This document shows positions 15,078-64,000 of a stretch of DNA of 64,000 nucleotides, in pieces; within the stretch, counting starts at the first letter, position 1, and each line of letters opens with the position of its first letter. The notes under the pieces were generated by a model, which did no database searches, was not told where the DNA came from, and saw only the letters and a program-made list of their open reading frames with translations. Where the stretch lies: positions 62,001 through 126,000 of the forward strand of contig OZ237736.1 of assembly GCA_965178125.1 (NCBI GenBank). The letters are read 5' to 3'. This DNA comes from Bilabrum cf. latius. Taxonomy: Eukaryota. A program made the position numbers and the translations under genes.

Positions 15078-16508
15078 GGCACACTTGGGGCGTACAGAGC
15101 TTGCGCGTTGTGCTCGAATCTATCCGTGGATTCGCCAACTCCACGTGTGCCACAGTGACGACGATGGCTTCGAGGTCGGGCTCTATATAGTAGAAATAGA
15201 GTTTACTTATATAAAAACTACACACATTTTGGCGGATAACATAAGAGGTCAATATTAACCACTTCACAACATCTTAAGCCGTAGTCCTTCATAATGTCCT
15301 TCACTTGAACATAATAATTTAATAGCTATTTATTCATATATCTACCTAATTTAATACCTTCGCGCCGTTAATGTCTATCTGTTAGACCTTTACTTTACTT
15401 AATCTGTTGAGTGAATCCCTAGCCTAAGTCTTAGGATATGCCCGCCCGAAATTGCGGAAATATATAGTCATTTAAGAATATATGTTCGCAATTCTGGGCG
15501 CGTAGGTGTATTGAGTTTTATATTATGATTTGGTTTTAAGTATCAATTGACATTTACCACTTTAGAAAATAACTAAATAAATACTTAAAGAGATTGACAG
15601 AAGTATTAAAGTCTTTTTAATACTTCCAATGAAAAATTTAAATTAATAAATAAAACTAAACTAATATATCAACTTAATTTATCTCTTTTTTTATTACTTG
15701 TCAATCTATACTTAAATAATTGAATATTTAAATATAACTAGAAGGAGATATTAATCACTTTATAAAGTCTTTTATATGTCATCTCTTCAAAACTTCAAAT
15801 ATAAGGGTATCCCCTTAAAAATACATCCTTTAATCTATCGCCCGAAATTGCGGTAATATTATAGCTATTCAAGATATATTTCCGCAATTCTGGGCGCGTA
15901 GGTGTATTGATTTTTATTTTTCATAATTCTTTAAATATGTTAAAGTCCTTTGTTTGAGTATATGATATAAAGGAATACAAAGCGGGATAACTTAAAAATG
16001 ATAAATGTTTTGACGATGACTTTAAAATGACTCAATGAACTGGTTTATGTCAAGTGTATTACTTTGAAATGATTAATCACTAGATTAAATGGAAAATATA
16101 GGATAATTAAATATGGTATAGTATAATACTAGCGCCCGAAATTGCGGTAATATATTAGGATATTAAGATATATTGTCGCAATTCTGGGCGCGTAGGTGTA
16201 TTGAGTTTTATATTTTGTTAATTTTGACATAGTTATCTTATAGAGGTGTAATTTTGTAATAAAGATATTTCTAGTATGTGCTATATTAAATGTCCAGAAA
16301 TGACGGCCCGAAATTGCGGAAATATATTAGGATATTAAGAGATATTGTCGCAATTCTGGGCGCGTAGGTGTCTTCAATAATTAATAATCAACTACTTCTT
16401 TAGTTTGATTAATTTTTTTGACTTACCGTTCATTTTATTGACCACTTAACGGGATATCACAAAAAGACTTAACCACTTGACGAGATATTTTAAAATAACT
16501 AATAATAA

Positions 16509-16582
16509 ATATGACCGCCCCAAATTGTATCTCCAGATATGACCGCCCCAAATTGTATCTCCAGATATGACCGCCCCAAATT
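16509..16582 (+). repeat. 28-bp tandem repeat (~2.7 copies) of the palindrome left arm
   Basis: ATATGACCGCCCCAAATTGTATCTCCAG twice, then a third partial copy running into a full palindrome. Confidence 0.9.
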
Positions 16583-16733
16583 GCGGAAATATATAAGTAT
16601 CAAGAAAATTATGTTTGCAATTCTGGGCGCTCACCCGTATTCAATTTTACATATTCACTAACTCATACCACTTATTTTAAGTCATTTTCTAGTTTTAAAA
16701 ACTTAAAGATTTATCTAGTATATTACTATAGTA

Positions 16734-16943
16734 ATGCCAGATATTAAAGATGTATTAAAATAGGTTCAAGACATTATGGAAGATTATCAAAGACTCAAGG
16801 AATAGGAGACCAAAAAGAAGGAAGCTATTAAAAAAGCTAAATAGAAATATTACCAAAAGAATCAAGAGAAATGGAAGGGGTACTATTAGAAGAGAAAACA
16901 GGTTAAGGATGAACCAGATACAGAAGGATTAAATAAGACTTAA
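16734..16943 (+). CDS. Small basic hypothetical protein (virophage A)
   Basis: ATG...TAA with four in-frame TAG; KYYQKNQEKW resembles EYYKTNKDKW of B 43024-43326. Confidence 0.6.
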
Positions 16944-16975
16944 AAATATATTTTATTATTATAGTATTATTAATA

Positions 16976-17188
16976 ATGGATTTAATAGATACCAAATCAA
17001 ATAATCAAGTTATCAATAAACCAATACATCAATTACAAGACTTACCAATAGAGTTTCAAGAGACTATAAGTTATTTACTAATCGGGAAATCCCCAGCAGA
17101 AATTGAAAAATTTAAAAATACTCTAGTTGTGCGCGAAAATCCATCTCAATCCTTTAAGCCAAAATAGTGCGTCTAGAAAATGACTTAA
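16976..17188 (+). CDS. Small hypothetical protein (virophage A)
   Basis: Track ORF extended through two TAG to TAA. Confidence 0.5.
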
Positions 17189-17218
17189 AAAATTATCTTT
17201 AGTATAGTATATACTAGA

Positions 17219-20017
17219 ATGACGACCGAACACATATCTAACCCTGTTTATTTCTCAATAGCTCACAACTCTAAACAACCACTTATTAAGTCTTGGTAGA
17301 ATTTGGAATCTACTAAACTTATCACCAGAAAGTCAAATCTTAATGTTGGATTACTAACTGGAAGACGTGCAGGTTTCTTTGTCCTTGACTTAGATTGTGA
17401 AAAAGAGAAAAATAAAACTGAATTTCAAAATGGTAAGTTTATTGCGGAATATGGTAGTGTTGATAAGTTTATTCAAGAGATGAATACTTACACTGTCAAG
17501 TCTCCCAATGGATATCATTTGTATTTTAAGTATGAAGAAGAGTTTAGTAAGAGGTCAGTAAATAGAAAAGAACATATAGATGTGATCACAAATGATAGCT
17601 TTATCATGTGTCCTCCTAGCTCTATCAACGGTAAGAAATACGAACTAATACAAAAGACATCCGTGAAAAGAATACCAACTGACGTCAAGATGTTCATACT
17701 ACAAAATATCTATTCACCACAACTTACAGCTGAAGACTACCGTTATATGATTAAACCCGAAGAATACAAACAATACTTATATCAATTAGGTAAAGAGTAT
17801 TATTCTAATTCATATAACTGGCATCTAGTTTGTAGAGCTACAAGTTATATCGCTAAATACTTAAATCCAGTAGATGGTAATAAGGTATATGATATGTTTG
17901 ATGAATGGAGCAAACAAGACGTAGAAAGCTATTAGTCGACTAAGAACAAGATAATTTTTACTCGATTATTAGAAAATTCCACTTTTCAATGTGTTGAATG
18001 GTTCTTTAATTAGTTAGATAGTGAAAAGAAACGACTTAGCCTATATTATCGATACAAGATATTCAAGAATAAAGTAGTCAAGAAAGTCAATTAGAAGATT
18101 GACCGTAGATATTTGACTGCTGACGACAAAGGTCGTTATATTAAATTCTTTAAGAAAGGTATCAACTATGCCGTTAAGTCGGGGGCTGGTTCTGGAAAGA
18201 CAACTGCTGCTAATGATTTATTTAATAGAGTAGATGACAGCTTTTTATCAGTTGTAAGTCGTATTTTATTAGGTAAGCAATAGATGCGTAGTCTTCCAAA
18301 ATCAACTAAATTCTATCAAGACCATAAATACAAATAGGGTGATAGTATTGTTATTACTCCTGAAAGTATTGTTAGTCTTAGCAATTATAACTTTAAGGAT
18401 TATATTGTCTTTTTAGATGAGTTTAATAGTATCTTAGAACACTGTTTAAGTTCTACGACTTTATATGGTAGGCGACCAATGAGTTTCATTACTCTTATTC
18501 GTGCTCTTACCACTTGTAAGTAGTTCATAGTAGCAGATGCTGACTTATCTCAAGATGCTCTATATTTCTTAGAATTATTAAAATTAGATTATCAATATAT
18601 TAGGAATGACAGAAACAGGTTCAAGGGCACCAAAACTGTATTTGTTAATGACGAACAGACTTTTAGAGATGAGTTAATGAAACACAAGAAATTTATGCTT
18701 GCTAGTGATAGTAAGACAAAAGCTGATATAATCAATGAGTTAATTAGTCTTAAAATTATAGATAACGAGAAAGATAAGAAATTAAATAAAATCTTAATAC
18801 TTACAGCAGAAAGCGAAGACAAAGACTATGATATGGATATGTTTGATATCATTATCTTCTCACCTAAAGTCATTTACGGGATAGATAGCACTATGACTAG
18901 ACCAGTCTTTGGTTATTTCAAAGGTCATACTATCACACCTCCCCAAATGGTTCAATAGCTTAACAGATGTAGAAACCCATCACATATCACTATATTTTTT
19001 GATTACTAGAAAGGACGATCTAGCACATATGAAAGTCTTTCACAAGTTAAATCTTTTATGGCTACCTCTTTAAAAGACTACGAAGAATTAGTTAAATTTG
19101 TCAGTGATACATATCCCGACTTCAACGAGGTAGAAGTAGAAGACAAAGTAGAAGAAGAAATGAGCAAAGTTAAAATCATATTCAAGAAACTATATCGTAA
19201 TTATCTTTACAAGGTAGATTGTTATAAGACAAACCCTAAATTACATATGATCAAGTAGTTAATTGATACCGGTTATGACGTGTCTTATGATTTATCTGTT
19301 AAGATCACCAGATGTAAGGATAAAGAAATCAAAGATACCATTAAAGAAAAACAACTTGAAAATTTTGATATTAATTGTCTTAATGTCAAGAAGATCAATA
19401 AATACTTAGACTTAGATGAAGGTGATATTGACAAATACAAAGAGTACTTTATTAATAAAGGTAAGTTATCTAATTTATTTAATTTCAATAAATTCTTTAG
19501 ACAAGATGATAAACACTTACTTGTGAAAGCAATTAATAAAGGCGAGTTTGATATTATCAATGCTAAGTCTAGTTCTAGAAAATTAGTCTTACTTAATAAG
19601 ATGATTGATACTTTGGGTCTTAAAAGAACTAATCTTGATTATAATATCAAAAAGAAAGTATTAGATCAAGACTTAACAGATGAATATAGGACAGTGTATG
19701 ACTGCCAAAGAAGAAGTAAAGTTGACCTATCCACTGATAAAGGTCTCTATTACGAAATACTTAAAGTATATAAATCAATGTTTGGGAAAGACATATTTAT
19801 GACTTGTAAGAAAAAGAAAATTAACTATGATGTAGAATTTAATTAGGATATTATTGATGAGATGGAATATATCTGGTCTAACAAGAAAAAGACTCGTGAA
19901 GTAGATATATTTGTTGATGATGAAGAGGTTCAATTACCCGATGAAGAGATAGAGGTTGACTTGGACCCCGCTTTATTTGTTGATGAGGATAATGATCCAC
20001 TAGAACAACAAAATTAA
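17219..20017 (+). CDS. Primase-polymerase (PrimPol) fused to origin-binding-protein-like (UL9-type) SF2 helicase, ~932 aa
   Basis: N-terminal NVGLLTG...VLDLD...TVKSPNGYHLYF; Walker A KSGAGSGKTT; Walker B FLDEFNS; FSPKVIYGID; QMVQ(TAG)LNRCR. One frame with TAG=Gln. Confidence 0.88.
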
Positions 20018-20079
20018 ATTATGACTTATTAATAAAAAACTTAATAAGACTTAATAATACATACCTTATATAAAATGAC

Positions 20080-20430
20080 TTAGTGGTCTCTTTTTGTCTT
20101 TTTAATTTTTTCTTCTCTCTTCTTCCTTTCACATTCACTTCTTTCAACACGATACATCAGCTCCTAGACGTGTTTCACTTGCTCTTCATATTCTAACTGT
20201 TCCAATGTACTTTCGAGTTTCTTGATAATATTGTCGAATTTAAAACTAAAGACATTCTAACGATAACCATCACCTTTGTCTTTTGGTTTCATCCATACAT
20301 ATTTATCAAAGTGATTCTCAATACTTTTACCTATACTACTGACTACATCATCGACACCTACACCTTTAACAAGACATTCATCTATAAAATTTTGAGATAG
20401 TTCAATTTTGATATCTTCTTTATCTGACAT
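20080..20430 (-). CDS. Hypothetical protein (cassette 1), N-terminus paralogous to 20984-21373
   Basis: MSDKEDIKIELSQ; ATG preceded by TATATATAG motif; TAA stop after two TAG. Confidence 0.65.
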
Positions 20431-20600
20431 TACTATATATATAGTGGATATTTTTTGGCGAAAGTAATAAACTAGTCTTAAGATATGACCGCCCGAAATT
20501 GCGGTAATATTATAGCTATTTAAGATATATTTCCGCAATTCTGGGCGCGTAGGTGTATTGAATTTTTAAATTTATTTGAATATAATATTTTTTACCTCTT

Positions 20601-20921
20601 GGTGCGTTGTGGTCTTGGTCTAGTGATATCGTGATTGTTTCACAAAGTCAAGGTCGTGGGTTCGATTCCCACCACTGACATCGCCGTAAGTCGTTCTGTA
20701 AGTCATTTTCATGACAAAGCACACGTCTTGCAAGTCTTTGAAGGGAGTTTGGATACTGTAGAAGTAGTCGTAAGTGGTTGTAGCAGACTTAGTCGTAAGA
20801 CTTAATAGGGATAGCGGTCCATGGTTGACATTCGCATCTCCGCTACAACAATGACTTACGAATGACTTCGCCAAGTAGTCAAACCATCGGTATAATTACT
20901 AGCTCAAAGAAATTTTTTTTT
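20601..20921 (+). ncRNA. Putative Pol III transcript: degenerate tRNA-like head plus structured 3' body
   Basis: A-box-like TGGTCTAGTGA 20616-20626; perfect T-arm GTGGG-TTCGATT-CCCAC 20656-20672; long-range stems; T9 run at 20913-20921; GC-richer than flanks. Confidence 0.55.
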
Positions 20922-20983
20922 ATTACATAGATATGACTTAATATTAATAACTTTAATATTAAGACTTTATTATTAAGACTTAA

Positions 20984-21373
20984 TTATGACATATGTTTTT
21001 TATATTCTTTAACACTCCTATCCATAGCATCCAGAATCATTTGTCTGTGATCTTCTTCAGTTAATGGTCTTCTTTTCCTGTTGCTATCACTTAACTTACA
21101 CTGAACGTATCCCATAATCGCGTCTTGTCTTTCATCAGTTAAGTCTTTAAGTAATTCAAAAACTTGATTTGCTTTATAGTCGGTCGTATATGAGAACTCC
21201 ATCATTCCATCTTTTGGAGTCGGTTGACCTATTTGTCTTAACACTATCTCATTTCCTTCTATCTTACTTGTGATTTTTCCACATAACATCTTACCTATTC
21301 CATCCCAATCAAGGTTTACACTTGATACAAGACTTTGAGAAAACGATATTTTTAAATCTACTTTATCTGACAT
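20984..21373 (-). CDS. Hypothetical protein (cassette 2)
   Basis: Intact 129-aa ORF MSDKVDLKISFSQ with the shared upstream block. Confidence 0.7.
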   Translation of the reverse strand: MSDKVDLKISFSQSLVSSVNLDWDGIGKMLCGKITSKIEGNEIVLRQIGQPTPKDGMMEFSYTTDYKANQVFELLKDLTDERQDAIMGYVQCKLSDSNRKRRPLTEEDHRQMILDAMDRSVKEYKKHMS

Positions 21374-21410
21374 TACTATATATATAGTGGATATTTTTCG
21401 GCGTAATATT
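21374..21410 (-). promoter_or_regulatory. Recurrent upstream motif CGCC(A/G)AAAAATATCCACTATATATATAGT-ATG (putative viral promoter)
   Basis: Near-identical upstream of ATGs at 20430, 21373 and 21938; variants upstream of 32571, 33507 and 36078. Confidence 0.6.
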
Positions 21411-21515
21411 TAAACTAGTCTTTAGATATGACCGCCCGAAATTGCGGTAATATTATAGCTATTCAAGATATATTTCCGCAATTCTGGGCGCGTACCCGTA
21501 TTGAGTTTTTAATAA

Positions 21516-21938
21516 TTAATCCATATTAGGGGGTTTCTTATACAAGATAGCAGGGTCGCATCCATTTGTTGGAAAGTCTGCTGGATACCACCCCCATACT
21601 ACTTTATAAATATCTGTGCTCGTGTCGTGTTCAACTTTATGATAAAAAATACAATCATAATGAATACCATTCTAATTACGCACCTCTTGCTCCATCTCTT
21701 CAATTATCTATCCTACCTTTAACTTTGTAAAGCCTCCTTCACTTACATATGTCTTTATATGACCTCTATTATTTACTTGTATCTAGTCTTTATCTATTAC
21801 TATTTCTTCTGGGTCTCCTTCAAATTCATCATCTAAGTAAACCTTTTGAGATTTAAGTGTTGGGTCTTCTCTATGTGGTAAGAATAAGAATGAATACTCC
21901 ATATAAAGTAAGTCTTCACACGGTGATACTGCTGCCAT
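21516..21938 (-). CDS. Hypothetical protein (cassette 3), 140 aa
   Basis: MAAVSPCEDLLY...KKPPNMD-TAA with three TAG; same upstream block; absent from the track. Confidence 0.65.
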
Positions 21939-22125
21939 AACTATATATATAGTGGATATTTTTTGGCGTAATATTTAAACTAGTCTTAAGGTATGACCGC
22001 CCCAAATTGCGGTAATATTATAGCTATTTAAGATATATTTCTGCAATTCTGGGCGCGTACCCGTATTGAGTTTTTAAATTTAGTCAATATTTATAACTTT
22101 TAAATATTAATTAATAATTTACGAC

Positions 22126-24012
22126 TCACATATTGAGCTACTTTCTAAGTTTCATAAGTTGAGCCTTAGTTAATTTCTTCCCTCCACTGGTCAAAAGACT
22201 TCCACCACTAGTTAAAAGACCTGCTCCAACACGTTCAGCTAAGTCATTCACTTCATCGGGTAAGTATTCACTTACTGCTTGTCTTGCTTTACGAAGAGCT
22301 GGTTTCACTTTATCAAATTTAGCTTTAGCTTTCTTTCCAAAGTCTACCACTTTACGTCCTAAGTCTTTAGCTTTGTTAAAGGCTCTCTTAAAGAATTGCA
22401 TCACTTTACGACGTCTTCCACCTAATACGTTCTTAGAGTAGTTCATATTAGAAAATGTATAATTAGAAGGTTTAGCCACTTTCTCAGGGTCAACAGAAGC
22501 ACTATCTTCACGCCATTCAATAGCGGCACCTCTAGTATTCACGATAATCTTGTCATAGGCACAGAATAATTGAGCTTTATATCCTTGAGACATAGCAGCG
22601 GTTGGGGGTTCGTCATAGGCTACTTGAACACGAATACTAATAGGGTCAGCACTGTTGCTTTGAATAGTTTCAGGAGTATTTAAATCACTAAGTCTAAATA
22701 AGAGCCAGCCATTAGATCCGTATACTTTAGAAGCACCTCCTACAGTTACATCTAAGTTAGTAAAAGAAGCATACTCACTATTTGATCCATTTCTTTCACT
22801 AAGTCTAAAGATATCGTCTTGTGTAAGTTCTCCTAAAATAGAACCCTAAGACCTAAGTTGTACTTTAATATTGTTAATGGCAAGTGTTCTATGAGGTGTA
22901 CCACTAGCTTCTCCATATTGAGAATCAACTAAGCACACAGCAAACCAAGAAGGGCAAGTCTAAAGTTGATAATTATTAAAAGTATGGACACCTTTAGTAG
23001 TGATAGGATTATCAAGTTTAGGCTCTTCATGTAGTTCAAAGTCAACAGAGTTGTAGAATATTTGTTTAGGTACTTTCTTCAAGAAGTTAAGATGAGTATT
23101 ATAAGTAAAGACATCAAAATGGATCTAGCAATCGGATAAAGCAAAAGCATAGTCTCCATTCCAATCACTTGAAGTATTAAACATCTTATCAATTAAGTTA
23201 TTTCTCATTTGTAAATTAACATTTAATTGTGGATGATCAACAAAAGGTCTAGCATTACCACCCATCATATATTGGAAAGGACGTGCAAGAAGTGCTTCAG
23301 AGATTTCAATATGTAATTTGACATAGTCTTGAGTTGGTGTTACATTATTATTAGGTATTGGAGTATTAGCATCCACTTTTTCAAGTGTTGCGCGGTAATT
23401 CTTACCAGGACCGCGAGCTTCCATAATACTATCATCATTTACACCCCATTGAAGGACAGACTTAGCAAGACCATTTGCGGCAGTATTAAATTCCCAAGTG
23501 TTATCAGCCTAAAAGACAGGACTTATTTGTGCTAGAGTGGCACGGTCAAGACTTCTAGCTATTAAATTGACTAATTGATAAGGTGATGAACTACGAGATA
23601 AGTCTCCCATTTTAACTGTGGAACTTGTGATCATTGAATTTACCATAAATGTAGAAGGGGCTACCTTATTGACGATATCAGTTTGAGCTACTGCTCCATT
23701 GTTCTAACTATCATAGATGTATACGTCAAATGAAACTCTTAGACGGGGATTACTGTCAGTCATTCCTTGATTTGATGGCACTACGAAAGTATAATTACTT
23801 CTAAATGCATTAGTTGCGCTAGAGTTACCACCATCTGGTTCGTAGTGGTTTTGAAACTTGGAAGAGTATCCAAGGGTAGTTCCGAGAGTAATAGCTTGAC
23901 TATCACCCACAAAGTTGAGTTTTTCGTCAGCTATTTGAGTTACTGGTAGTTCTGAGACGTCATCTACGACTTTGCTTTGTGCTGCTACAGGTACATTATC
24001 CATATCAGACAT
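22126..24012 (-). CDS. Virophage major capsid protein, ~628 aa
   Basis: Three track ORFs in one frame. PSWFAVC...LAINNIKVQL...GELTQDDIFRLSERNGS resembles the virophage MCP C-terminal jelly roll; GG-containing basic tail; next to penton. Confidence 0.88.
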
Positions 24013-24054
24013 TATAAATATATTAAGACTAAAGATATTTATTTATTTTTAACT

Positions 24055-24981
24055 TTAAGTTATTAACTTTTTACTTTTAAATAGAGCTTTTATATTAAGT
24101 CCTTGTCCAAAAGTAAAGGGTATTTCGTATAAGTTTCCAAAAGTATCTCTAAAATACGGTACTATACTATAACTATTAAATGCTGATCTATAGAACTATT
24201 GCCATCTATGATTTCCTCCACTACTAAAGTTTATTTTAATAAAACTTGTTCCTGTTGTATTGTCTATCTTGAAATCACTTAAGATATTTTCACTTTGTAT
24301 CTCTGTACTAGATGTACTTTTATATGATGGTGTAAATTCTGGAAGTATTGGAAGAGATGGACTAATAATTTGAATATACTCCATAGTAGGAAACTAATCT
24401 AAGGTAGAAGCACTCTATTCATTGTATCCATCTAAAAGATTTATATAAGTATCACTTTTAATGTCTTTACCTTCATCATCATATTCAAATGTCTCAAATA
24501 TAGAGAATAAAGGAAAGTTAAAACTTAAAGTCCACGCACTTGTAAAAGCCGCTAAACGGGTGAAACTAAAAGTTTTAGTCTTACCGTGATATTCAAATAC
24601 TATACTATCAGTTGGAATACTAGCATCTCCACATAAATCACTAAGAGTATTATTAAATTCATTAGATAAGGTCTTAAGACTATAATATAACGACTTGGTT
24701 AAGACAATATTACGAGTGTAAGTAGTTCCATCACTCTTCTTCACAAACGACATCTTATAAATTGACTAATTATCGCTATTCTTTACTTCTTTACTTGCTA
24801 CAAATAAAGGAATACGACATTTAAGAGTCCATCGGTCAAGTGATAATAAGTAGTTTTGTGAATTTGTCAAGATATTACCTTGACGCTGTTCATGTATTGA
24901 TACTGGTCTATTAGTATTAATAGATGTTATAGTATCCTATGAGTTAATATAAAAGATATCTGGTTCTTGAATCTCTACCAT
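24055..24981 (-). CDS. Virophage minor capsid protein (penton), ~308 aa
   Basis: HEQRQGNILTNSQNYLLSLDRWTL..IPLF N-terminus; adjacent to MCP; homolog at 50895-51848. Confidence 0.82.
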
Positions 24982-25341
24982 TCTATAACATTTATCAAGA
25001 AAATAAGTCTTGTCTAATGCCCCAAATTGCGGTAATATTATAGCTATTTAAGATATATTTCCGCAATTCTGGGCGCGTACCCGTATTGACTTTTTAAAAA
25101 AGTTTTTATTAATTATTTGACTCATTGAAAAAATCCAATATTCCGAAATTTTAAAAATTTAGTATCTTAAGATATAGTATAATACCAGCGCCCCAAATTG
25201 CGATAATATATTAGGATATTAAGATATATTTCCGCAATTCTGGGCGCTTACCCGTATTCATTTTTATATTTTAGTCTTTTTAATATGGCCACCTTATAGA
25301 TATCAATTTTCAATATCTAAAAATTTATGGTATATGTCATA

Positions 25342-25890
25342 TTAACTAATTATCAAAGTAATAAGTTCATCATTATCTAGTCCTCCTCCATACTTTTTAA
25401 AAGCCTTCTTTAATTGACTATTAAACTAATCATTCGTTAAATTATGAAAGAGAAGTCTGAGCACACTCCACCGACCGCATGTGGCAGAGTTATTTGATAT
25501 TAATTGATTCTTTTGATTTGAATAGTCAACATTAATACCAGCATCTAATACGTGATCTATTAGAAGACTACTTCTATCATATAGCTTCTATGGGTCTATG
25601 ACTCCTCCTACGACTGGAATATGAGTATCAGGTAATTGACCATAACTATCCCAAAAATAAAGAGTATTCTTTGATTTATTAAATATGACCGCAGTATAAT
25701 GACCGCTCATTGTTGCTCCTTCTACTAAGTTAGGATAATAAAGGACAAATAAAGGATTTTCATCTAGAAATTGTCTGATGTTATTAGTATCACTTATTTC
25801 TTCATACATTATAACTGGTATATGCTACTTTGTAAATGTAAAGTATAGTCTTTGTACCTCTTCAGGACTTAATGCAGTGGTTATATCCAT
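25342..25890 (-). CDS. Adenain/Ulp1-like cysteine maturation protease, 182 aa
   Basis: GHY, FWDSYG and NQ...ATCGRW (His-Asp-Gln-Cys catalytic set). Confidence 0.9.
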
Positions 25891-25909
25891 ATACTTAATA
25901 CTAAGAAAA

Positions 25910-26977
25910 TTAATATACGAACATCTATTTAGGACAAGTGATAAAATTATAAGTCTTATTAATACATAGCCATCTATTACCTTCTCCAAACAATTTATAA
26001 ACACGATTTATAAGACTTGCATCAAATCCTAAATATGCTTTCATTAAATATTTGCTAAATTTCCATAGATTTCTCTTAAATAAAATAATATTATGACTTT
26101 CCATGACTATTGACCTAGTATTCGCATAATCATTCGTTAAATGACTTATAACTATCATATTTGTTGAGCTATGTCTTCCAACTTCACCTATACGCTTAAT
26201 TAAGAATAACGCTCTCTACTTTTTATCACCGTTTAAGGCTTCATAATCATCAAATACCACCACAGAAGGACCCTATTTTGCCCATTCTTCATACAATGGA
26301 GTAGTGGTAAATGATGCCTTTGTCTTGTCTTTACTTGTTGGTTTCATTCTTTCTATCTCTATCTCTCTTTTAATTAATTCATGAGGTTCTAATGACTTCT
26401 TTTCCTACCTAAAGAATATCTTTTCTTCTTTGTATTTCCTCATTAAGTCATCATAACTATCGTTTCTATCTACTGCTACTAATTTATCAATATCAATAAA
26501 ATTACCATATTTTAAATAAGTTGGATTTGTTTCCTGTACTGGTGTAATGACTAAAACCCTCTTCTTTGGAATGAACATATGATAATACTTGAGTAAAGAC
26601 TTAGCAATATAAGACTTACCAGCACCAGCCTAACCACTTAAATAGTGTATTTGTCTTTTGGTCTCATCATCAAAGAATGGGACTATTTCAAACTAACTCT
26701 TATCATCTATTCTTAACTCGTTAGTCTTTCTAACTAGTTTTTTATTTCCATTCACTAGCTTACACATCTCTTCACGTAATGCTTTTTTATTCTTCTCATA
26801 TTTAATTGCTCTCTTTCCATAATACTCTTCAAGTAAATCATCACTTATATCTTCTGGAGTTATGACTTTTTCCCCTACATCTTCACTAAAAAAGACGCTT
26901 TTGTTCCTCTTCTTGTGCTTGTATTCTCTTAAAGCAACTAAATGACTATTTGGTATTTCATCGTATGATAATGACAT
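25910..26977 (-). CDS. A32/FtsK-HerA-like genome packaging ATPase, 355 aa
   Basis: Walker A SG(TAG)AGAGKS, Walker B VVFDDYE, GRH, IVISH, TRSIVMESH. Confidence 0.9.
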
Positions 26978-27122
26978 TATATACTATATGTTAATATTTA
27001 TTATTTTTCTAATAATTAGTGGGTTCAAAAGGTATATTGTGAGAAGTAGCCATTTCAAATATTCATTTTAGAGTGCACAGTCTTAAGAATATGATTAAAA
27101 TATCATATAAATATATAGAATT

Positions 27123-27644
27123 ATGGATCACAAACTTCTAATTTCAAAAAGATATATTAAATCATTTTATAAGTACTCATGTAAAGTTAATTAGTACTAT
27201 AAGAAAGCAGAAGAGTAGCGTAATATGATGACAACTGATAGAGTAGATTGCTATACTAATTATATAACTTGTCTTCTAATTGCTCGTAAGTATAGAGAAT
27301 GTATTATCAATTGCAGTAAAAAGTACTATTATGATATGGACTTTACGTTAAATGATAACGGATATGTATCGTCTTCTTTTGATCACTTAAAAACATTCAA
27401 CTTTGACTATGCTAATTCAATGAAAATAAATGAATGTATAGAACAATTTAAACAATCCGTTGAGTGGGAAAGGTTATTTAAAAAAGACTTTTTTCAAATG
27501 TAGTTAATTTATGAATATCTAAAATTTTTCAGACTTAAGTGCTATTTACATGACATACGACCAGATAATCCCCTCCATCCGACAGAAAAAGTTAATAAAC
27601 TTAACGAAGAAGACATTGACGAGCTATTTTATAGTGACTGGTGA
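27123..27644 (+). CDS. Hypothetical protein (virophage A)
   Basis: ATG 27123 to TGA 27642-27644 with TAG read-through. Confidence 0.6.
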
Positions 27645-27838
27645 GACGACCGCCCCAAATTGCGGTAATATTATAGCTATTTAAGATATATTTCTGCAAT
27701 TCTGGGCGCGTAGGCTGTTAGAGGTTTTACATTTTCGGGTCAATCTAATGAAAATCTCACAATATAGGGCGCCCCAAATTGCGGAAATATATAAGTATCA
27801 AGAAAATTATGTCTGCAATTCTGGGCGTTTAGGTGTAT

Positions 27839-50894: not shown

Positions 50895-51848
50895 TTAAAA
50901 ATCTAAACTTAAATTATCGGTTTGTTTTTTAAATACTTGTTTAATGTGAGCTTCACCCCCGTTAAAATTCATTACGGGATACTTTTCATTTTGTTTATCA
51001 ACCCAGTAGAACGCCATTGACACGCTCTTAAAGCTTCTATCCTTCATCATTGAATACCAGCGGTAAGGATTAGAAACATATAATATATTTTCTATTGGTG
51101 AGCTGTCATTAGGATTATACGGGTAGCTGGTTAATATAGGGGATTTATTGACGGCTATAGAGCCACCAGTAGATGATTTTGTGGTCACCAATTCTTTATT
51201 CACTGGAATATCACTTTCTACGATAATAGATTTAACAGGGCACCAAGAATTTAAATTCGTCTATCTAGCCATAAAAACATAATCACCACTAGCAGGGGAA
51301 TTATTATATGAAAGTTTAGCAAATAAATCACTCGGTGTGGTTGTTATTCCTTCATATTCAAATTTATCAAATAAAGCAAAAGCTTCAAAATTAACAAATA
51401 AATAATAATTATCTCTAAAATCTTCAGTTGTTGATAAACTCCATTTATTATTTTCAAATTTAAAGACTGGTTTATCACCACTTGGAAGGCTTACCAAATC
51501 ACAAATTCGGCTTAACTCTTCATTAAATTCATTTACAATATCCTAATATGAATAATAAAATTTAGCTTTTTTACCTAGAACTATATAATCGCCTGCTCTG
51601 GCTCCTGATGTTTTATTCTCAAGAGTAAATTTTAAATAGGTTTTACCGCTGTCATCCTAATATTCAGGTTTAAACACCGGTAGCATAAATTTATTTAAAT
51701 CCATCTCTTCAACAGCCGTTAAATAATTTTCACTTTGTTTTAATATTAAGCCTTCACGGGTTTCATTCACTACCGCCTATCTCGTCTAATTGTGGGGGAC
51801 AGATGAACTAACTAAATTCAATCTTACAAATTCATCGCTATAACTCAT
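50895..51848 (-). CDS. Virophage minor capsid protein (penton), 317 aa
   Basis: VNETREGLILKQSENYLTAV...LPVFKP; SWCPVKSIIVESDIPV; FYWVDK. Confidence 0.85.
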
Positions 51849-52184: not shown

Positions 52185-52760
52185 TCAATGTAGAAGCAAC
52201 GCCACTAACTAATCAGGACTAAGAGCCATAATTTTGGATATTCTAAACATTTCATTTACAAACTAATCATTAGTTAAGAATGAGAAAACAGTTCTTAATA
52301 ATGCCCATCTTCCACAAGTAGCACTCTAATTAGCATAACTCTAAATAGGTTTATTATTATAGTCAATTTTCCAGCCGTGTAATTTCTACGTCAATAAATA
52401 TTTAACTAGTGTGTTCTCTTCTCCTTCTCCTTGATACAATTGGTTTCTATTAATAAATGGTTTCTATTGGTCGGGTTTTTCTCCATAGCTATCAAAAAAA
52501 TAAATAGTTTTATTATTTTCGTCCTAAGTAAGAGCGCAATAATGACCGTATGTGCTATTTAGTCCCGTCTTTTTATTAGGATAATAAATAATTACGCCGT
52601 CATAACCATCAAAAATATGTTCAATAGATGAGGTCTATTTAATAATATCATCGTAAATAACTATTCTAGGTTTGTAATTCAAATGTGCTACACCTAATTT
52701 TTGAATTTCTAAAGGAGATAACGGTGTTTGGACTAGTCTATTTAAGTCGTTTATGTTCAT
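52185..52760 (-). CDS. Adenain/Ulp1-like cysteine protease, 191 aa
   Basis: GHY, FFDSYG, I(TAG)...ATCGRW; invisible in the standard-code track. Confidence 0.88.
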
Positions 52761-52768: not shown

Positions 52769-53839
52769 TCAATAGAGAAATATTTTTTTTGTGCTAACTA
52801 CATAATTATTATCAACATTAATAGCAACATAACCAAAGAGAGGGAGAGAATGAAGGGTTTTTTTAATTCGTTTTCTAGTAGGAGCGTCAAAACTTAAGAC
52901 TGTTTCTAAAATATATTTTAAACTTTTAGCTGTAATTGTTTTATAAATGATATGGGTTGTAATTTCGTTCATAATGGTTCGTGTCTTCATACCGTCGCTT
53001 ATTTTGTGGGTGATGTCTAAAACGCTACTTGCTGTGTGCCTTCCTGTAGTTGCTAGGATTTCCAATAAAAAATAAGCCTTTGCTTTCTGGTTCCTTTTTT
53101 TAAAGCCTTCGTAATCATCCAGAATAAATAAATTAGGTTCAGCGGTCAATTTTTTAAAAAACTCAACATTTAATTTAAAACCTTTTTCTATTAAATCTTT
53201 CTCAGGTTTCAAATCCTCTATCTTTCTTTCAGCTTCAATAACAACATCTAAAGGTTTAGATTTCATCAAAGAAGATTTCTTATATTTAAATTCTAATTTC
53301 ATTTTTTTATAATAAGCCATTTTTTCCTTATATAAAGTGTTTTCATTCTCTTTAACCAAATCATCTATATCAATGAAGGTCGCGCCTTCTCTTTTATATT
53401 TAGGGTCTTGAATTGGTGATATAACATACATATTTTTATATTTTAATCCTCTATACATCCTTATATAATGTAAAGCTAAATGACTTTTCCCGCTTCCACT
53501 CTTACCAAATAATCGCACATATTCACGCCCCTATGGAAAGAGCATAGGAAAAGGTAAATATTGACTATTATCTTTAATCGCAAATTCCTAAACTGACCGT
53601 ATATATTCATCTTGTAATAGTTTATGTAATTGTTCCCTTTTCTTGTCCTTATCAACGTTATATCTTACTCGGCTTTCTCCGTAATAAGATTTTAAAACAT
53701 CATCTGTTATCTCTTCCGCTTTGACGTGTTGAATATCTTTAGCGTTCGGGTCGTAATAAATAAACCGGTTCTATTGTGTTTTTTTGTATTTTTGAATAGC
53801 TACAATATGGCTATTTTCCGTATATTGTAAAGATAGCAT
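52769..53839 (-). CDS. A32-like packaging ATPase, 356 aa
   Basis: GKSGSGKS, ILDDYE, TGRH, TRTIMNE. Confidence 0.92.
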
Positions 53840-53931
53840 TATATATAATAATAAAATAAAATAAACCATTTATTCACACGGGTTTAAAATATTAAGTTGG
53901 TTCCTTCTTCTATCCTTCCTCACAAAAAAAG

Positions 53932-57350: not shown

Positions 57351-58379
57351 TTAGTCTATAGGATAATAATATTTTGTTTTGTATAGATATATATAATGGC
57401 AGAGTTAGTAGCAACAGCAAGCACGGTTGGTGGGGTGTTGGTTCCTCTAGGATATGCGGGATGCTTCCTTTGGAACTTATGTTCCTCACTTGCGAATCGT
57501 AAAAAATTGTGTTTAGTCCTTCCACGAAAAGGAGGTAAAAGTTCACTTAACAAAAGTTTAACGTCTATAGACCCGAATATTCTATTAGTTGATTTAGATG
57601 AAGTCCTTAAAGTTAATGCTGACACCAAACAGGTTTTATACCTAAACGAAGCAGAACGAAGAGGGGACTTATCAACGGCTAAATTATTAAAATTTGAACT
57701 TATGAAAAAAAGTATTGAGTCTGTAAAGAAAAATTGGTTATAGAAAGCAGAACATAGAGCAGTCTTTTTAACAAGTGATTTTGAACTAGCACAAGAAATA
57801 TTCAAAAAATCCAGCATATGCGTAGCTATACCCAGCGATAAACTGTATAGCAAAATCCATAAAGATTTAGATAATGATGATGCCAGAGTGTACGCGCAAC
57901 CTAGTCTCGTTAACAATCAGACATGGCAAGACCTGACAAAGCTGTGCCTGTGCGCGACCCTTGACCGGACTGACCGGGGCTGGGAAGAGCACGTGCACTA
58001 CTCCGCCGAGGAGGAGGGGGTTGGGAGGGTGGGCAAAAATTACCCAATCTCCGCCCCTCTCCTGAACACAGAGAGGGTATGCGCGTCATCGCAAGCAATC
58101 CGTTGGCTTGGTCGCACCTTCCCGGTCGCAACCGCCATCGGAACCCAACGAGACGTTCACGCGCTCCCACTCTGGCATCAACACCGAACCCCATCCGGCG
58201 TTAGGATCATGATGCCAGAGTGTACGCGCAACCTAGTCTCGTTAACAATCAGACATGGCAAGACCTGACAAAGCTGTGCCTGTGCGCGACCCTTGACCGG
58301 ACTGACCGGGGCTGGGAAGAGCACGTGCACTACTCCGCCAAATCTTACCGCCATGTCTTGTACGCTGCGGCTGTGTGGC

Positions 58380-59480
58380 TCACTCCAAGTTCAGCCGCAG
58401 CGCGCTGGCCAGCACCCACACTGGCCTGTTCAAATCGAGGCTCCTGCCGCCGAGCTCCAGAGGAGGCAAGCCTTCCCTGACGCCCCGCAAGTACACCTCG
58501 CATGCAGATGCCGACTTCCATCTGCCAAATCGCCTAATGACCTCGAAGGCGACCCCAGCACGGTCCAAACACATCACTGCCGCGATGCGGATGGAATGTC
58601 CGTGCACCGCTCCTGCAACTTCTCGTGAGCAGAAGCTGCGGAGCGCCCGTACTACCTGCGCCTTGACGATCGGCTTCGTGTTCGCCACGAAGACTGGCCC
58701 TGACGTGGGGCAGCTGAGCGCCAGCTACCGGGCGTAGTCTTCGTCTGCGCCTGCAGTTGGGGCGTGGCTCGCTGCTGCCCACGCCACGAAGGCTCGCACG
58801 CCGCAGAACCTGCTGCCTGTGACTGCCCATCGTCCGGCTCTGCAATGGACTGCGATGGGCTCTGCGGCTTGGATGGAGAACTTGGCTGGGCCGTCGGCTT
58901 TGTGGAGGCCCAGGCGGATGGCAACACCATGGATGCGTCCGTCTCGCGTGATGAACTGCACTTGCTGCCATTGGAGGCCGGCTTGTCGTCTGGACGCCCG
59001 ACGAGCTCTCCCAGCCGGAGGCCCCCACAGAAGCAGAGACAGACAGCTGCCCGAGCAGCCTACTCTGTTGTGCTGCAACCGGCTGTCGAGAAACACCGTC
59101 GGATTGCGCGGAGTGGGGCTGAAGATCGACGCAACGGGTGCGCCGATGGCGATGCTTTGTGGTAGTACCGGAGGATGCTGTCGAGCTAGCTTGACCGTGG
59201 GACGCCGCACGCTCCTGTGGACTCGATGACGACTCGCTAGGCATTTCTGGTGTATGTAGCGATGGTGCCGCCACTGAGAGGCGAACATTCCCCTAAGAAG
59301 ACTGCGAATCTCGAGAGCGCTGCATTGAGCCTGAACGCGAAGAGTCTGCGAGCTGCTGGAAGATGCCCGTCCATGAAGCTGCGGTCGATGTCGTACCACG
59401 TGAGGAAGTTGTCGAAGTGCCCCCACGCCGTGCGCAACCCACTGAGTCCAGAGTGGCCACCAGCGTGAAATGGTCGTGCT
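58380..59480 (-). pseudogene. Tyrosine recombinase, frameshifted near 58990; 5' end approximate
   Basis: GGLRLGEL in one frame; LHKAD...GHSIRI...GRWKS...VYLR in another. Confidence 0.8.
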
Positions 59481-59690
59481 TGGACAAGGTGTTCCAGATC
59501 GGCGTGGGACAGTTGACCGGATACACCGCGTCCAGGTGCGTGTATGCCTCCTGTGAGCCGCGGCTCAAAGCGTCCGCAACGACGTTGTCCTCGCCAGGAA
59601 TGTGTTTCACGTGAATCTGCACATCTTGCGTTGTCTGCAGTACGAAGATAGGGCGAAGTAAGGCTGCCATGATGTGGCTCTTGGGTCTGC
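59293..59690 (-). pseudogene. RNase H C-terminal remnant of DIRS/Ngaro pol
   Basis: IHVKHIPGEDNVVADALSRG; gag and RT absent. Confidence 0.8.
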
Positions 59691-60062
59691 CGTAGCGTAT
59701 CAGCTACACGGAAGCAAAAATTACCCAATCTCCGCCCCTCTCCTGAACACAGAGAGGGTATGCGCGTCATCGCAAGCAATCCGTTGGCTTGGTCGCACCT
59801 TCCCGGTCGCAACCGCCATCGGAACCCAACGAGACGTTCACGCGCTCCCACTCTGGCATCAACACCGAACCCCATCCGGCGTTAGGATCAAGATAAGGAT
59901 GTAGCAAGACATTCACGAGCTGAATTTTTGAAAAGTTTTAACCCTAATGAGTATAGCGTGTATAATACGTTTGAAGGGCTTTCATAGATGGTTATGTCAG
60001 TCTATAATATGACCTACAGAGTGTAATTATTTGAATATTATTAAATAATAAATTAATAATAT

Positions 60063-61220
60063 TTATTTAGTCTTATTATTAAAATTATCCTTTAGAGTTT
60101 TTGATATATTTTTAGCCGGCTCCGTTGTTATCTTCCATTGAATTAAATATTCATCTTGTCCCTCTTGATTCTTTCTTCTCTTTATTATTTTACCTATATC
60201 ATTCTAATATTTTCTTTTAGTAGCCTCATCAACATATGAATCTTTCCATTTAACCCTGTATGTATTATTTTTATTCTTTCTTATCAATTTTTCAATTATA
60301 AATATATCTTGTGCTTTATTCTCGTATGGTTTAGATGCTAATAACAACTAATCTCTATTAAAGTATGTATAGGGTATGCCCTCAATTTTATATAATGGGG
60401 GGTTATCTGGTTTTATTATTACTCTTTCAATTTTATAAGGCTTTACGCTATATTTAATATCTCCCGCCCTAAATGCTCCGGTCTCCTTTATCCCTTCTAT
60501 ACTTCTAGGATAATCTAATCCTATTCTTACCATTTCACCCTCATTTAATACATCACATACTTCACCCTAACATCTAGGCGGTATATATGGTAGATTCTCC
60601 CTTTTCTTATTCAACATTTCCTATCTTGTTTTATAACGCTCGTTTAATATCTCCCTCAATTTTGGTATTAAATGTCTCCAGTTCGTGATAGTTGTCCCCG
60701 TTCTTATCTCCTATGAATTCAAATAATAAAATATAGCTCTCCCTATTTCCTCATTCAATCTCTCCACCAAAGCCATCTACGATTTACGCTTCACTCTTGA
60801 AAATATATGCTCTATCTTATTCTTCTTTAGATATTCTTTAAATGATTCATTATCAAATTCTCCCCCTTTATCTGTTCGTATCATTTTAGGTTTCATTAAA
60901 TAATTTCTTTTATAGATTTTTTGAAAAGCTTTTATCACATCCTCCGCCCCTCTATCCTTTAACTCTTCAAAATCTAACGCTAATCCGCTAGTATCTATCA
61001 CAACTAATAAATATTTTGAATCGTTCTTGGTAGCGTAAGGGAGATACAATAAATCAGCCTATTGGATAAGCCCCTCTTTAGTAGGTTTATAATATTTAAC
61101 ATAATTCAATCCTTTCGGTTTCTTTATCGGCTTCATTAAATCGTTCGTGATAGACTTCGTATTAAATCCAAAACTTGATTCATTAATATCATTATCTTTT
61201 TTCTTTCCTCTCTTACTCAT
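60063..61220 (-). CDS. rve DDE integrase with chromodomain-like C-terminus, 385 aa
   Basis: (TAG)ADLLYLP, LVVID, RTDKGGEF, (TAG)MALVERLN; YRVKWK/YLIQWK. Confidence 0.88.
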
Positions 61221-61733: not shown

Positions 61734-62150
61734 ATGTTCGTTAAGTTCCTGTTATCAAGTGTCAACGTTAAAAAGGTATTCCAGAATAAAAGCATCTCCA
61801 CTTTTATGTCAATCGTATATATTTATGTTGAGAAGCACAAACCATCAATGTTAAAGCATTTTCAACTTGATGACCTTCGTGTCCCTCCAGATTGTAATGA
61901 ACGACTTAAAAAAAGAGTATTAAGTGAATTTGAAGAAATTGATTATATATCATATTTCGTTCAACCATTTAGAATAATACACAAGCTAAATGAAGAAAAT
62001 GTTGAATGCCTAAGTGAAGACTTAAATGATACCGTAGCCATAGATTTATTGGTTAAAAAAGAGAAGGAAGCCATTGAGAAATCAATAAAGAAATAGAAGG
62101 ATGACATCATCAAAAAGGCTATAGATGACTTTATCTTACCCAAGGATTAA
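61734..62150 (+). CDS. Hypothetical protein
   Basis: Track ORF extended through TAG to TAA. Confidence 0.6.
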
Positions 62151-62197
62151 ACTATATATTAATAATAATAATAATAGTATTATTAAAATTCAAAAAT

Positions 62198-62545
62198 TTA
62201 TTCTAAAAACTCAATATCAAACCATTCATTTGAATCATCATATTCTTCAGCATACATCAACGATAATTCTATATACTCTTCTAATTCACTATTAGTAAGG
62301 TTATCAATTTCTTCTTCTTTCAATAGTTTGAAATCGGTTCCGTTGTCATCATTAAAACTTTCAACTTGACCTTCTGCTTCCTTTTTATATTCTTCTTTCC
62401 AATTATCACTCCATACAACTCTCTTCGCTTGGTCTTTTAAAGTGTCAGTATAAAGCTTTTGTGCTTCTTCCTTATTATTAAACTTTTTAACCCAGTGTGT
62501 ATGATAACATTCACTACCCCACGCTAATGATACAATATAAACCAT
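62198..62545 (-). CDS. Acidic hypothetical protein
   Basis: Intact 115-aa ORF. Confidence 0.6.
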   Translation of the reverse strand: MVYIVSLAWGSECYHTHWVKKFNNKEEAQKLYTDTLKDQAKRVVWSDNWKEEYKKEAEGQVESFNDDNGTDFKLLKEEEIDNLTNSELEEYIELSLMYAEEYDDSNEWFDIEFLE

Positions 62546-62586
62546 ATCTATAATAATTAAAAATAAAATAATTATTATAATAAAAC

Positions 62587-63384
62587 TTAATTAAAATTAT
62601 CCTCTATCTCGTCTCGCTCCTCGTTATCCAATACCCAATCTAATCTTGAAGGGTGCCACGCTCTAGAAATTAATTCTTCTTTGATTTTTTTAGTTTGTTC
62701 AATTGTTTCATCTTTCCGCTCTTCTAATGATGGGATTAATGTCGTGGAATAATCAATTCGTTCATCCTTAATTCCATTCTCCAAATGATTAAAACTAAAA
62801 CAATTAGAAAACATACATTCCATATCTACAACATTTGAAACATCCCAGTTATTTAAAGGTTGATTTAGTGAATGGCAATCATAAAACATTCCGCACATAT
62901 CTTTAACATTTGAAACGTTCCAATTATTCAATGGTTGGTTAAATGAATGGCAATCATTAAACATTTCACTCATATCTTCAACATTTGAAACATTCCAATT
63001 ATTCAATGGTTGGTTAAACGAATGACACTCATTAAACATACCGCCCATATCTTCAACATTTGAAACATCCCAGTTATTTAAAGGTTGATTAAACGAATGA
63101 CACCCATAAAACATATCGGTCATATCTTTAACATTTGAAACATCCCATGAATTTATTGGTGATTCAATTATCATATTATCAAATAGGTTTAACATATTCG
63201 TAATAAATGTTGTTACTAATAATTCAGGTTTCAAAAACTACAATGCGTGAAGAAGAAAATCTGTATCTTTAGCTACGTAATATGTTTTACCTTCAAATTT
63301 CACAATATAATTATCTTTTCTAAAATAATATTCTTTTGGTTTTGTAGCTTTCAAGGTTCCATTTTCCCATTTTAAAACTTCCAT
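62587..63384 (-). CDS. DUF285/BspA-like repeat protein
   Basis: ~22-aa repeats FNQPLNNWDVSNVxDMxxMF; C-terminal EELISRAWHPSRL. Confidence 0.88.
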
Positions 63385-63473
63385 TCTGTATATACCTATA
63401 ATAAATATATTATTTAAGCCTTTTTAAACTCACACTATAATATTAAATAATCATTAATATTATTAAAATTCTA

Positions 63474-64000
63474 TTAATTAAAATTATCCTCTATCTCGTC
63501 TCGCTCCTCGTTATCCAATACCCAATCTAATCTTGAAGGGTGCCACGCTTTAGCAATTAATTCCTCTCTATATTTCTTTGTTTTTTTAATGGTTTTATGT
63601 TTTCGTCTTTCTAACAACGGTATCAATGTTGTAGAATAATCAATTCTTATACCCTTAATACCGTTCTCTAAATGATTGAAACTTTCACAATCTTTTAACA
63701 TCTAAAACTTACTCTAGACATTGGAAACATCCCAATTATCCAATGGTTGATTGAAGTTCTAACATCCATTAAACATAGAGGATATATATTCAACGTTAGA
63801 AACATCCCAATTACCCAATGGTTGATTGAATCTTGAACAAGAACCAAACATACCACTCATATCCCTAACATTACTAACATTCCAATCGTTCAATGATTGA
63901 TTGAATTCAGAATGATAGAACATAGACGACATTTTTTCAACCTTAGAAACATCCCAATTATTTAATGGTTGATTGAAGTTCCAACATCCATTAAACATAG
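63474..64000 (-). CDS. Second DUF285/BspA-like repeat protein (5' end beyond window)
   Basis: Same repeats; near-identical C-terminus to 62587-63384. Confidence 0.85.

Follow-up and report, generated by a model that had tools for sequence, protein, structure and literature searches.

Two mavirus-type virophages side by side in protist DNA and their probable adaptation to a UAG = glutamine code

The 64,000-nucleotide stretch of DNA from Bilabrum cf. latius analysed here (assembly GCA_965178125.1, contig OZ237736.1, positions 62,001 to 126,000; hereafter the window) passes from GC-rich protist genes into AT-rich DNA occupied by two neighbouring virus-like elements, A and B, whose genes carry many TAG triplets in frame. 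The question raised by this locus is how these triplets are read, and whether the elements are working viruses written in the code of their host or something else, such as relics, passive residents or an artefact of assembly. A preliminary description, made from the sequence alone, had taken A and B for endogenous virophages recoded to a TAG = glutamine (Gln) code of the host. The explanation favoured here, with a probability of about 0.85, is that two different mavirus-type virophages are integrated next to each other in the nuclear genome of a protist that reads UAG as Gln and have long been adapted to that code.

The reading of TAG in host and virophage genes

The four long host open reading frames (ORFs) at the beginning of the window stay open only when TAG is read through (25 TAG, beside 116 CAG and 28 CAA codons), and they terminate with TGA in three cases, with TAA in one and with TAG in none, in a small sample of four. 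In the gene of the host mitochondrial RNA polymerase, two TAGs fall on Gln residues common to the yeast and human enzymes, one of them in the motif KQTVMT. The position of TAG on Gln residues shared by the yeast and human polymerases, together with ORFs that are open only with TAG as a sense codon, thus indicates that the host decodes UAG as Gln while UAA and UGA remain stops, which is the pattern of NCBI table 15.

The same usage is found in the AT-rich DNA. From 57 distinct ORFs of at least 100 amino acids, 40 non-overlapping ORFs in AT-rich DNA were retained; the 17 excluded comprise two host ORFs, four antisense or overlapping shadows, four ORFs in a mid-GC stretch at 37.2-39.0 kb, a split gene at 57396 and six ORFs in a GC-rich insert. 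The 40 virophage ORFs (11876 codons) contain 172 in-frame TAG, 310 CAA and 27 CAG, with TAG accounting for about one third of the glutamine codons; at least one TAG is present in 36 of them, and their terminators are TAA (30) and TGA (10), never TAG. The lack of in-frame TAA and TGA is a consequence of how an ORF is defined, and hence stop-to-stop frames of at least 200 codons in 15181-64000 were counted as a control: 12 frames (2953 codons) are obtained with the standard code and 31 frames (12456 codons, the longest of 942) with TAG as sense, versus 23 frames (5954 codons) with TAA and 21 frames (5322 codons) with TGA as sense. The earlier claim that the genes can be read through TAG with neither frameshifts nor premature TAA or TGA is borne out by this control. 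Full-length homologues of the core genes are recovered only by read-through of TAG; under the standard code the frames do not exceed 371 codons, whereas the true proteins reach 932 residues. In the two other frames of the 40 virophage genes TAA alone occurs 1361 times, and with off-frame TAA so abundant, chance cannot explain frames of 600-940 codons that lack both TAA and TGA.

The identity of the residue encoded by TAG can be read from homologues. A profile search with the primase-helicases of A and B gave 5998 homologues at E <= 0.001, of which the best 150 were aligned and, after the three closest had been set aside, 147 remained. The two helicases have 31 TAG positions, 8 in poorly occupied columns and 23 evaluable; the log-likelihood summed over the helicase TAG columns is +14.2 for Gln and -15.4 for the next residue, Asn, and Gln is the commonest residue at five of the evaluable positions. 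In particular, two TAG columns of helicase A have Gln in 136 and 144 of the 147 homologues, one TAG column of helicase B has it in all 147, and a single column with TAG in both helicases has it in 78. The helicase codons quoted in the preliminary description are exact and in frame, CCC CAA ATG GTT CAA TAG CTT in A (18941-18961) and CCG TAG ATG ATG TAG CAA CTG in B (41904-41924), and so is the protease Gln located nine residues before the catalytic Cys, which is encoded by CAA in A and by TAG in B. In the alignment of 26 protease homologues the His is conserved in 26, the Asp in 24 and the Cys in 25, while the column that contains the TAG of protease B has Gln in 25 and one gap; this Gln presumably has an 'oxyanion' role, by analogy with the adenain-like protease clan.

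Where proteins of A and B are aligned with each other, TAG faces Gln or TAG in 13 of 107 cells (the background frequency of Gln is 4.7%); TAG faces TAG in only two cells and many different residues in the others. Two relatives of the major capsid protein (MCP) of A, P0002 and P0003 (86-88% identical), have Gln in eight of 12 cells at its six TAG columns and lend weak support, the code used to call their genes not being given. Taken together, TAG at invariant Gln columns and the lack of TAG terminators indicate that host and virophages share the UAG = Gln code, which extends, judging from the alignments, to invariant and catalytic-site positions. The helicase genes of eight IMG/VR and 29 metagenome relatives (overlapping sets; 28-45% identical to helicase B, 585-933 codons) contain no in-frame TAG, TAA or TGA, which indicates that the TAG = Gln recoding is derived in this virophage lineage. 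TAG ends 12 of 63 ORFs in the eight IMG/VR relatives, and at that rate its absence from all 40 ends found here has P = 2e-4.

Virophage identity, copies and integration

Both elements encode a primase-helicase, an MCP, a penton protein, a cysteine protease, a Walker-A ATPase and an rve integrase (Table 1). MCP A passes the MCP_V20_C threshold of Pfam, and a profile made of both MCPs and two relatives matches PDB entries 6g45 and 6g43 over nearly their full length at E ~3e-28 (3.1e-28 for 6g45) and Sputnik V20 (3j26) at E=2.3e-6, so that the MCP is homologous to the double jelly-roll capsid proteins of virophages. The PDB title of the 6g4x entries reads 'Putative major capsid protein' only, and these are taken here to be the mavirus capsid. 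The protease has 29 homologues, two of which are named PRO of Cafeteriavirus-dependent mavirus, with 36-37% identity to mavirus PRO; a protease profile gave only chance-level matches against PDB sequences. On the basis of the capsid and penton Pfam matches, the MCP profile and the mavirus PRO homologues, A and B are assigned to the mavirus-type virophages (Maveriviricetes-like). Their proteins are 21-36% identical, and by this comparison A and B are two separate lineages, each with TAG = Gln, and not two copies of one element.

The gene list given at the outset stood for the capsid, protease, helicase and integrase. The ATPase is a putative packaging ATPase of the FtsK/HerA type with a Walker A motif: the Pfam matches of ATPase A are below cut-off (AAA_10 with 25.2 bits against 27.5, and AAA_22), and ATPase B has no Pfam match. 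In both elements the ATPase gene adjoins the protease gene, a position that fits a virophage packaging ATPase. The listed PolB was not confirmed: for the ORF so labelled in B, Pfam gave no match to a polymerase family at E <= 1, and the PDB gave nothing at E <= 10.

Six sequencing runs from two studies contain over 87% of the words sampled from A. A dN/dS comparison between A and B, as proposed in the preliminary description, is meaningless at 21-36% protein identity, and near-identical copies of A in contigs of public assemblies were compared instead over window positions 14001-34000. The major A variant differs from the window copy at 11 of ~3800 bases in the helicase region and by an in-frame length difference of 756 bases in the ORF 29175-30788. 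The comparison reported 133 differences between copies and displayed 40, the subset on which the following ratio rests; 3 of these are intergenic and 37 coding, the latter divided into 30 synonymous and 7 non-synonymous (chance expectation for synonymous, 19%; P = 1e-15), and 14 of the 37 come from one run only. This excess shows, at the level of sequence, purifying selection between the A copies, and the proteins therefore mattered during their recent divergence. Most other A copies in the public assemblies lack 756 bases (29679-30436) of the low-complexity ORF 29175-30788, and the same copies carry an in-frame insertion of 15 bases at 33822.

In two runs with contigs identical to the host flank, A contigs have a depth of ~504 and 405 and the adjoining host contig of 40.2 and 29.4, a ratio of 12-14 that is not a calibrated copy number and to which extrachromosomal A DNA could contribute; it is the pattern of a multi-copy element and implies a recent multiplication. 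At the border between host and virophage A the GC content passes from 0.53 to 0.31 across 15100-15300, and two independent assemblies have an identical host-A junction up to 15212, with 0 differences, the independent host contigs ending at that position, ~28-31 bases past the junction and at or below the 31-letter bridging rule. One run (X1), with another organism label, contains the same major A variant and no host flank of the window, and a further run (X7), from a sample with that other label, gave only short matches, mostly of low identity, which are no proof of absence; two studies, with different organism labels, thus share a near-identical A variant. Element A looks functional as far as its sequence can tell: its genes are full-length, it has recurrent promoter-like motifs as well as 3' hairpins, and near-identical copies of it are numerous.

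Competing explanations and relation to known systems

Several points weigh against the favoured reading and are to be added to the limits given above for the copy comparison, the contig depth and the junction. At 18 of the 23 evaluable helicase TAG columns a residue other than Gln is the commonest (for example Ile or Leu at A265 and A680, Asp at B228 and B380, Arg at B906), a majority that fits variable positions and is not positive evidence for the code. The tRNA scan of the window gave 0 tRNA genes, so no suppressor tRNA was seen. Mavirus-like elements usually have terminal inverted repeats, and none was found for A with blastn at word size 7 between 14900-17300 and 36000-40300; the long inverted pairs detected in the window are copies of a dispersed hairpin element and not terminal repeats. 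Element B includes a 1.8-kb stretch of intermediate GC content, and its homologue of the A ORF 31798-32436 is cleanly disrupted by an insertion of ~2 kb, with its N-terminal part matching residues 1-164 of the A protein at E=1e-31 and its C-terminal part matching residues 163-212 at E=6e-8. B is consequently not fully intact on this alignment, and the initial view of both viruses as intact, code-adapted and not decayed needs correction for this gene of B, while it holds for the genes of A and as regards decay.

Decay, in which A and B would be relics and their TAGs nonsense mutations in dead genes, is in fact the least probable of the alternatives. The standard code breaks every core gene, as decay would require; but the 172 in-frame TAGs are accompanied by no TAA, TGA or frameshift in frames of up to 942 codons, TAG stands on invariant Gln columns, gene lengths match those of the homologues, the differences between copies are in synonymous excess and the host RNA polymerase uses TAG likewise. 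Moreover, a single transition turns CAA into TAA, and there are 11 CAA codons for every CAG, so neutral decay would yield TAA far more often than TAG, and in-frame TAA numbers 0. Very improbable, too, is an assembly chimera, in which the assembly fused host DNA with free virophage DNA or with that of another organism in the culture, their common code being fortuitous. Two independent assemblies share the junction, a host-like GC-rich element of Ngaro type lies inside B, both elements encode rve integrases (that of A with a chromodomain above the Pfam cut-off), and the code adaptation would stand even for free DNA; the features that a chimera would account for are the depth of the virophage contigs far above that of the host flank, the run with A and no host flank and the break of public contigs ~30 bases after the junction, and such breaks are expected at the edge of a multi-copy element.

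A more serious rival, although an unlikely one, is that A and B are inherited, non-infectious endogenous elements whose TAGs arose in place by CAG-to-TAG changes silent in the host, that is by passive drift. The missing terminal inverted repeats and the retroelement that interrupts B are in its favour, as is the lack of a free relative of the capsid genes, since a scan of IMG/VR with MCP A found no relative and, of 52 pattern matches to the MCP alignment in the JGI metagenomes, 0 were confirmed. It is countered by the purifying selection between copies, by the depth of A and the closeness of its major variant, which point to recent multiplication, by the presence of a near-identical variant under two organism labels in two studies, and by the rarity of TAG-TAG cells between A and B, which argues for continued evolution under the code over a long divergence.

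If the two mavirus-type virophages are long adapted to the code, as favoured here, both lineages would have evolved for a long time inside UAG = Gln hosts and lost TAG as a terminator, and their proteins would be made on host ribosomes with the host UAG-reading tRNA-Gln and an altered release factor. In a cell with the standard code none of the core proteins would be made in full length, which would confine spread to UAG = Gln hosts, and a helper giant virus would at the least have to end its genes with stops other than TAG. A role as barriers to viruses has long been proposed for alternative genetic codes, and it can reasonably be inferred that the code is here a host-range barrier and that the helper giant virus would be tolerant of it. 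A wider proposal, of a live three-level system in which UAG = Gln is the code of the protist, of its giant virus and of the virophages alike, with virophages that are active, as their many near-identical copies under purifying selection would suggest, a helper that is recoded or purged of TAG stops, a private virosphere and a code carried by a stramenopile host, is possible but doubtful.

The locus resembles the EMALEs/mavirus of Cafeteria burkhardae as presented in the available text of Hackl et al. (2021; PMC8547959), namely AT-rich genomes of ~20 kb in the GC-rich DNA of a heterotrophic flagellate, with a gene set of MCP, penton, ATPase, protease, rve integrase and primase-helicase, many copies, repeated promoter motifs and GC-rich Ngaro insertions of the form A1-[ORF]-B1A2B2 inside virophages. 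In contrast to Cafeteria, which that text describes under the standard code, 36 of 40 ORFs require TAG = Gln here, and the Ngaro-like insert is of ~2 kb and has no reverse transcriptase, instead of ~6 kb (PMC8547959). Further differences are that no terminal inverted repeats were found here and that the host RNA polymerase is 48% identical to that of Cafeteria. The principle of a shared code is not new: according to the part of Bellas et al. (2023; PMC10120064) that is available, endogenous Maverick/Polinton-like viruses of Streblomastix strix use the TAA/TAG = Gln table of their host, which is read there as a sign of long-term association and is a precedent among related viruses. In that system, as far as the same text goes, the host is a metamonad, both TAA and TAG encode Gln and the MCPs are Polinton-like, of the 'Metamonada group' (PMC10120064). 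In contrast, TAG alone is reassigned here, in a stramenopile-like host, and the capsids belong to the mavirus/Sputnik type.

Sputnik has an MCP C-terminal domain (MCP_V20_C) and a penton protein (V18-19) homologous to those found here, it is more distant than mavirus by the MCP profile (2.3e-6 against 3e-28), and it uses the standard code. The crAss-like and Lak phages reportedly read TAG as Gln (code 15) and differ in code from their bacterial hosts; they are similar to A and B in that TAG is read as Gln in virus genes, which standard gene callers fragment, and different in that the code of the virus here matches that of the host, in a window with 0 tRNAs. As regards helpers, a 2026 catalogue (PMC13524828) reports, in its available part, that bins of giant viruses from metagenomes are annotated better under alternative codes, including code 15, and points to possible giant viruses that match hosts in which stops have been reassigned; these are the kind of helper needed here, but the text gives gains in gene calling only, with no known host or virophage (PMC13524828). 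An ochre-suppressor tRNA in one virophage clade was taken as a hint of host reassignment by Paez-Espino et al. (2019). In a literature search that left subscription journals and supplements outside its range, no paper on a virophage with TAG/UAG read as Gln was found, nor any account of a stramenopile or bicosoecid whose nuclear code has UAG = Gln, and the Halocafeteria preprint nowhere mentions a variant code.

Two independent virophage lineages would thus have crossed the code barrier and become locked in, their core genes needing UAG = Gln and those of metagenomic relatives not. They offer a testable system for how viruses follow a change of code in the host, for whether giant viruses do likewise and for the persistence of virophage-based defence in recoded hosts. 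Pipelines that use the standard code fragment these genes, and lineages of this kind are therefore under-counted. As for the host, it appears to be a stramenopile-like protist with UAG = Gln in its nuclear code, a combination for which no report was found in the literature searched.

Layout of the window and minor features

A composition scan gives 60-70% GC for positions 1-15180 and ~30% GC from ~15181 to the end of the window, with the exceptions of the mid-GC stretch at 37.2-39.0 kb and the GC-rich one at 57.9-59.9 kb; the features are collected in Table 1. The three host ORFs between 3813 and 15077 (GC 0.64-0.70) belong to the Pfam families TCR/CXC, Arm (armadillo repeat) and Asp_Arg_Hydrox (Asp/Asn hydroxylase domain). 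The closest named relative of the host RNA polymerase is that of Cafeteria, with 48% identity, and in a tree of this one gene the host stands beside Cafeteria in a well-supported group next to the ochrophyte stramenopiles (SH-aLRT 94 and 99), so that this one-gene tree suggests a branching with Cafeteria-like stramenopiles, a lead to the lineage and not an identification. A database protein, P0004, is 98% identical to the host RNA polymerase and only 511 amino acids long; its shortness may be due to a gene call ended early by TAG under the standard code.

Table 1. Features of the window, by position; a dot marks features without strand and TAG counts are in frame
Feature	Position	Strand	Details
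Host mitochondrial T7-type RNA polymerase	2..2485	+	open at 5' end of window; 7 TAG; TGA end; Pfam RNA_pol E=1.8e-153
Host ORF	3813-7454	-	GC-rich; 5-7 TAG; TGA end
Host ORF	8894-11167	+	GC-rich; 5-7 TAG; TGA end
Host ORF	11604-15077	-	GC-rich; 5-7 TAG; TAA end
Virophage A	15181..36850	.	~21.7 kb; ~30% GC; left junction ~15181-15185; right end approximate
Primase-helicase A	17219..20017	+	932 aa; 11 TAG; Prim-Pol E=8.9e-14
MCP A	22126..24012	-	628 aa; 6 TAG; Pfam MCP_V20_C 30.4 bits (cut-off 27)
Penton (minor capsid) protein A	24055..24981	-	308 aa; 5 TAG; 30.4% identical to penton B over 273 residues
Cysteine protease A	25342..25890	-	182 aa; 3 TAG; conserved Gln129 = CAA; homologues include mavirus PRO
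Packaging-type ATPase A	25910..26977	-	355 aa; 6 TAG; Walker A GQAGAGKS
rve integrase A, C-terminal chromodomain	34423..36078	-	551 aa; 12 TAG; rve 32.8 bits (cut-off 32.6); Chromo 30.3 (cut-off 25.1)
TATATATA motif sites	20430-20473, 21373-21416, 21938-21981, 33509-33552, 36081-36124, upstream of 32571
Virophage B	~36900 to at least 63428	.	>25 kb; left end approximate; may extend past window end at 64000
Mid-GC stretch inside B	37200..39000	.	45-55% GC; ORFs 37629-38090 (+) and 38274-38993 (-)
Primase-helicase B	40188..42965	+	925 aa; 20 TAG; Prim-Pol E=7.2e-16; PriCT_2
ORF once called PolB	44844..46343	-	499 aa
MCP B	48934..50823	-	629 aa; 9 TAG; MCP_V20_C 17.2 bits, under cut-off; 25.8% identical to MCP A over 563 residues
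Penton protein B	50895..51848	-	317 aa; 5 TAG; Pfam V18-19 (Sputnik minor capsid) 29.2 bits (cut-off 27)
Cysteine protease B	52185..52760	-	191 aa; 8 TAG; invariant Gln = TAG
ATPase B	52769..53869	-	366 aa; 3 TAG; Walker A GKSGSGKS; 33.6% identical to ATPase A over 342 residues
Split B gene	57396..60026	+	N-terminal part 57396-57873; C-terminal part 59889-60026
Ngaro-like element	57874..59894	-	~2 kb; ~60% GC; split direct repeats; tyrosine-recombinase-like ORF over two reading frames
rve integrase B	60063..61220	-	385 aa; 7 TAG; rve 45.6 bits; Chromo 21.7 bits, below cut-off
DUF285-repeat gene 1	62587-63384	-	Pfam DUF285 E=8.4e-55; in-frame TAG
DUF285-repeat gene 2	63474-63998	-	DUF285 E=3.5e-38; in-frame TAG; interrupted by window end
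TTTAAAANNNCTTAAA in B	40144, 42981, 46373, 46817, 48310, 48915, 63413

The insert that splits the B gene contains two pairs of direct repeats, one of 181 nt (58033-58213 and 59714-59894, 99%) and one of 134 nt (57874-58007 and 58206-58339, 99%). On the minus strand their order is 181-nt repeat, internal part of 1.37 kb, 134-nt, 181-nt and 134-nt repeats, which corresponds to the A1-[ORFs]-B1A2B2 arrangement. Ngaro elements, of the DIRS order, are defined by these split direct repeats in the available text of PMC8547959. The recombinase ORF of the insert matches Phage_integrase with E=0.016 and 15.4 bits, below the cut-off of 27.1; its H-x-x-R and later Tyr motifs, found by eye, are in another frame than the upstream LRLGEL motif, and the gene therefore seems to be frameshifted. 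The three long ORFs of the insert gave no Pfam match to a reverse transcriptase or RNase H, and, with an internal part of only ~1.4 kb, the insert would be at best a Ngaro deletion derivative.

Intergenic repeats of B type are located at 37040-37220, 39864-40045 and 47495-47675, the first near the approximate left end of B. A Pfam scan of both ORFs in the mid-GC stretch found no family. At the other end, the two DUF285 genes belong either to the end of B or to a further element, and a promoter motif of B type is located upstream of the gene 62587-63384.

Each element has its own repeated signals. In A, a 57-nt hairpin element (GCCCNAAATTGCG...GCAATTCTGGGCG) is present in 16 copies between 15444 and 34386, all inside the element, with 0 expected; its fold has -25.4 kcal/mol (z = -2.85), most copies lie within ~100 bases downstream of stop codons, and it may be a shared signal for transcript 3' ends or a small mobile element. 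Six A genes have a palindromic motif containing TATATATA immediately before their ATG, and a shortened copy of this motif forms the left end of A at 15181. In B, TTTAAAANNNCTTAAA occurs seven times (8 copies in the window, 0.81 expected by chance), and six of the seven copies are 30-45 bases upstream of start codons; a weaker ACTTAAA core precedes several A genes, and A and B may answer to the same helper. Such shared signals would be expected of virophages that borrow the transcription system of a giant virus. A helper giant virus may have promoters such as TTTAAAATNNCTTAAA. Finally, a 20-nt unit (CTTTGRAAAGTATGAACCWA) is repeated six to seven times in tandem at 48412-48564, between a B gene and the capsid gene.

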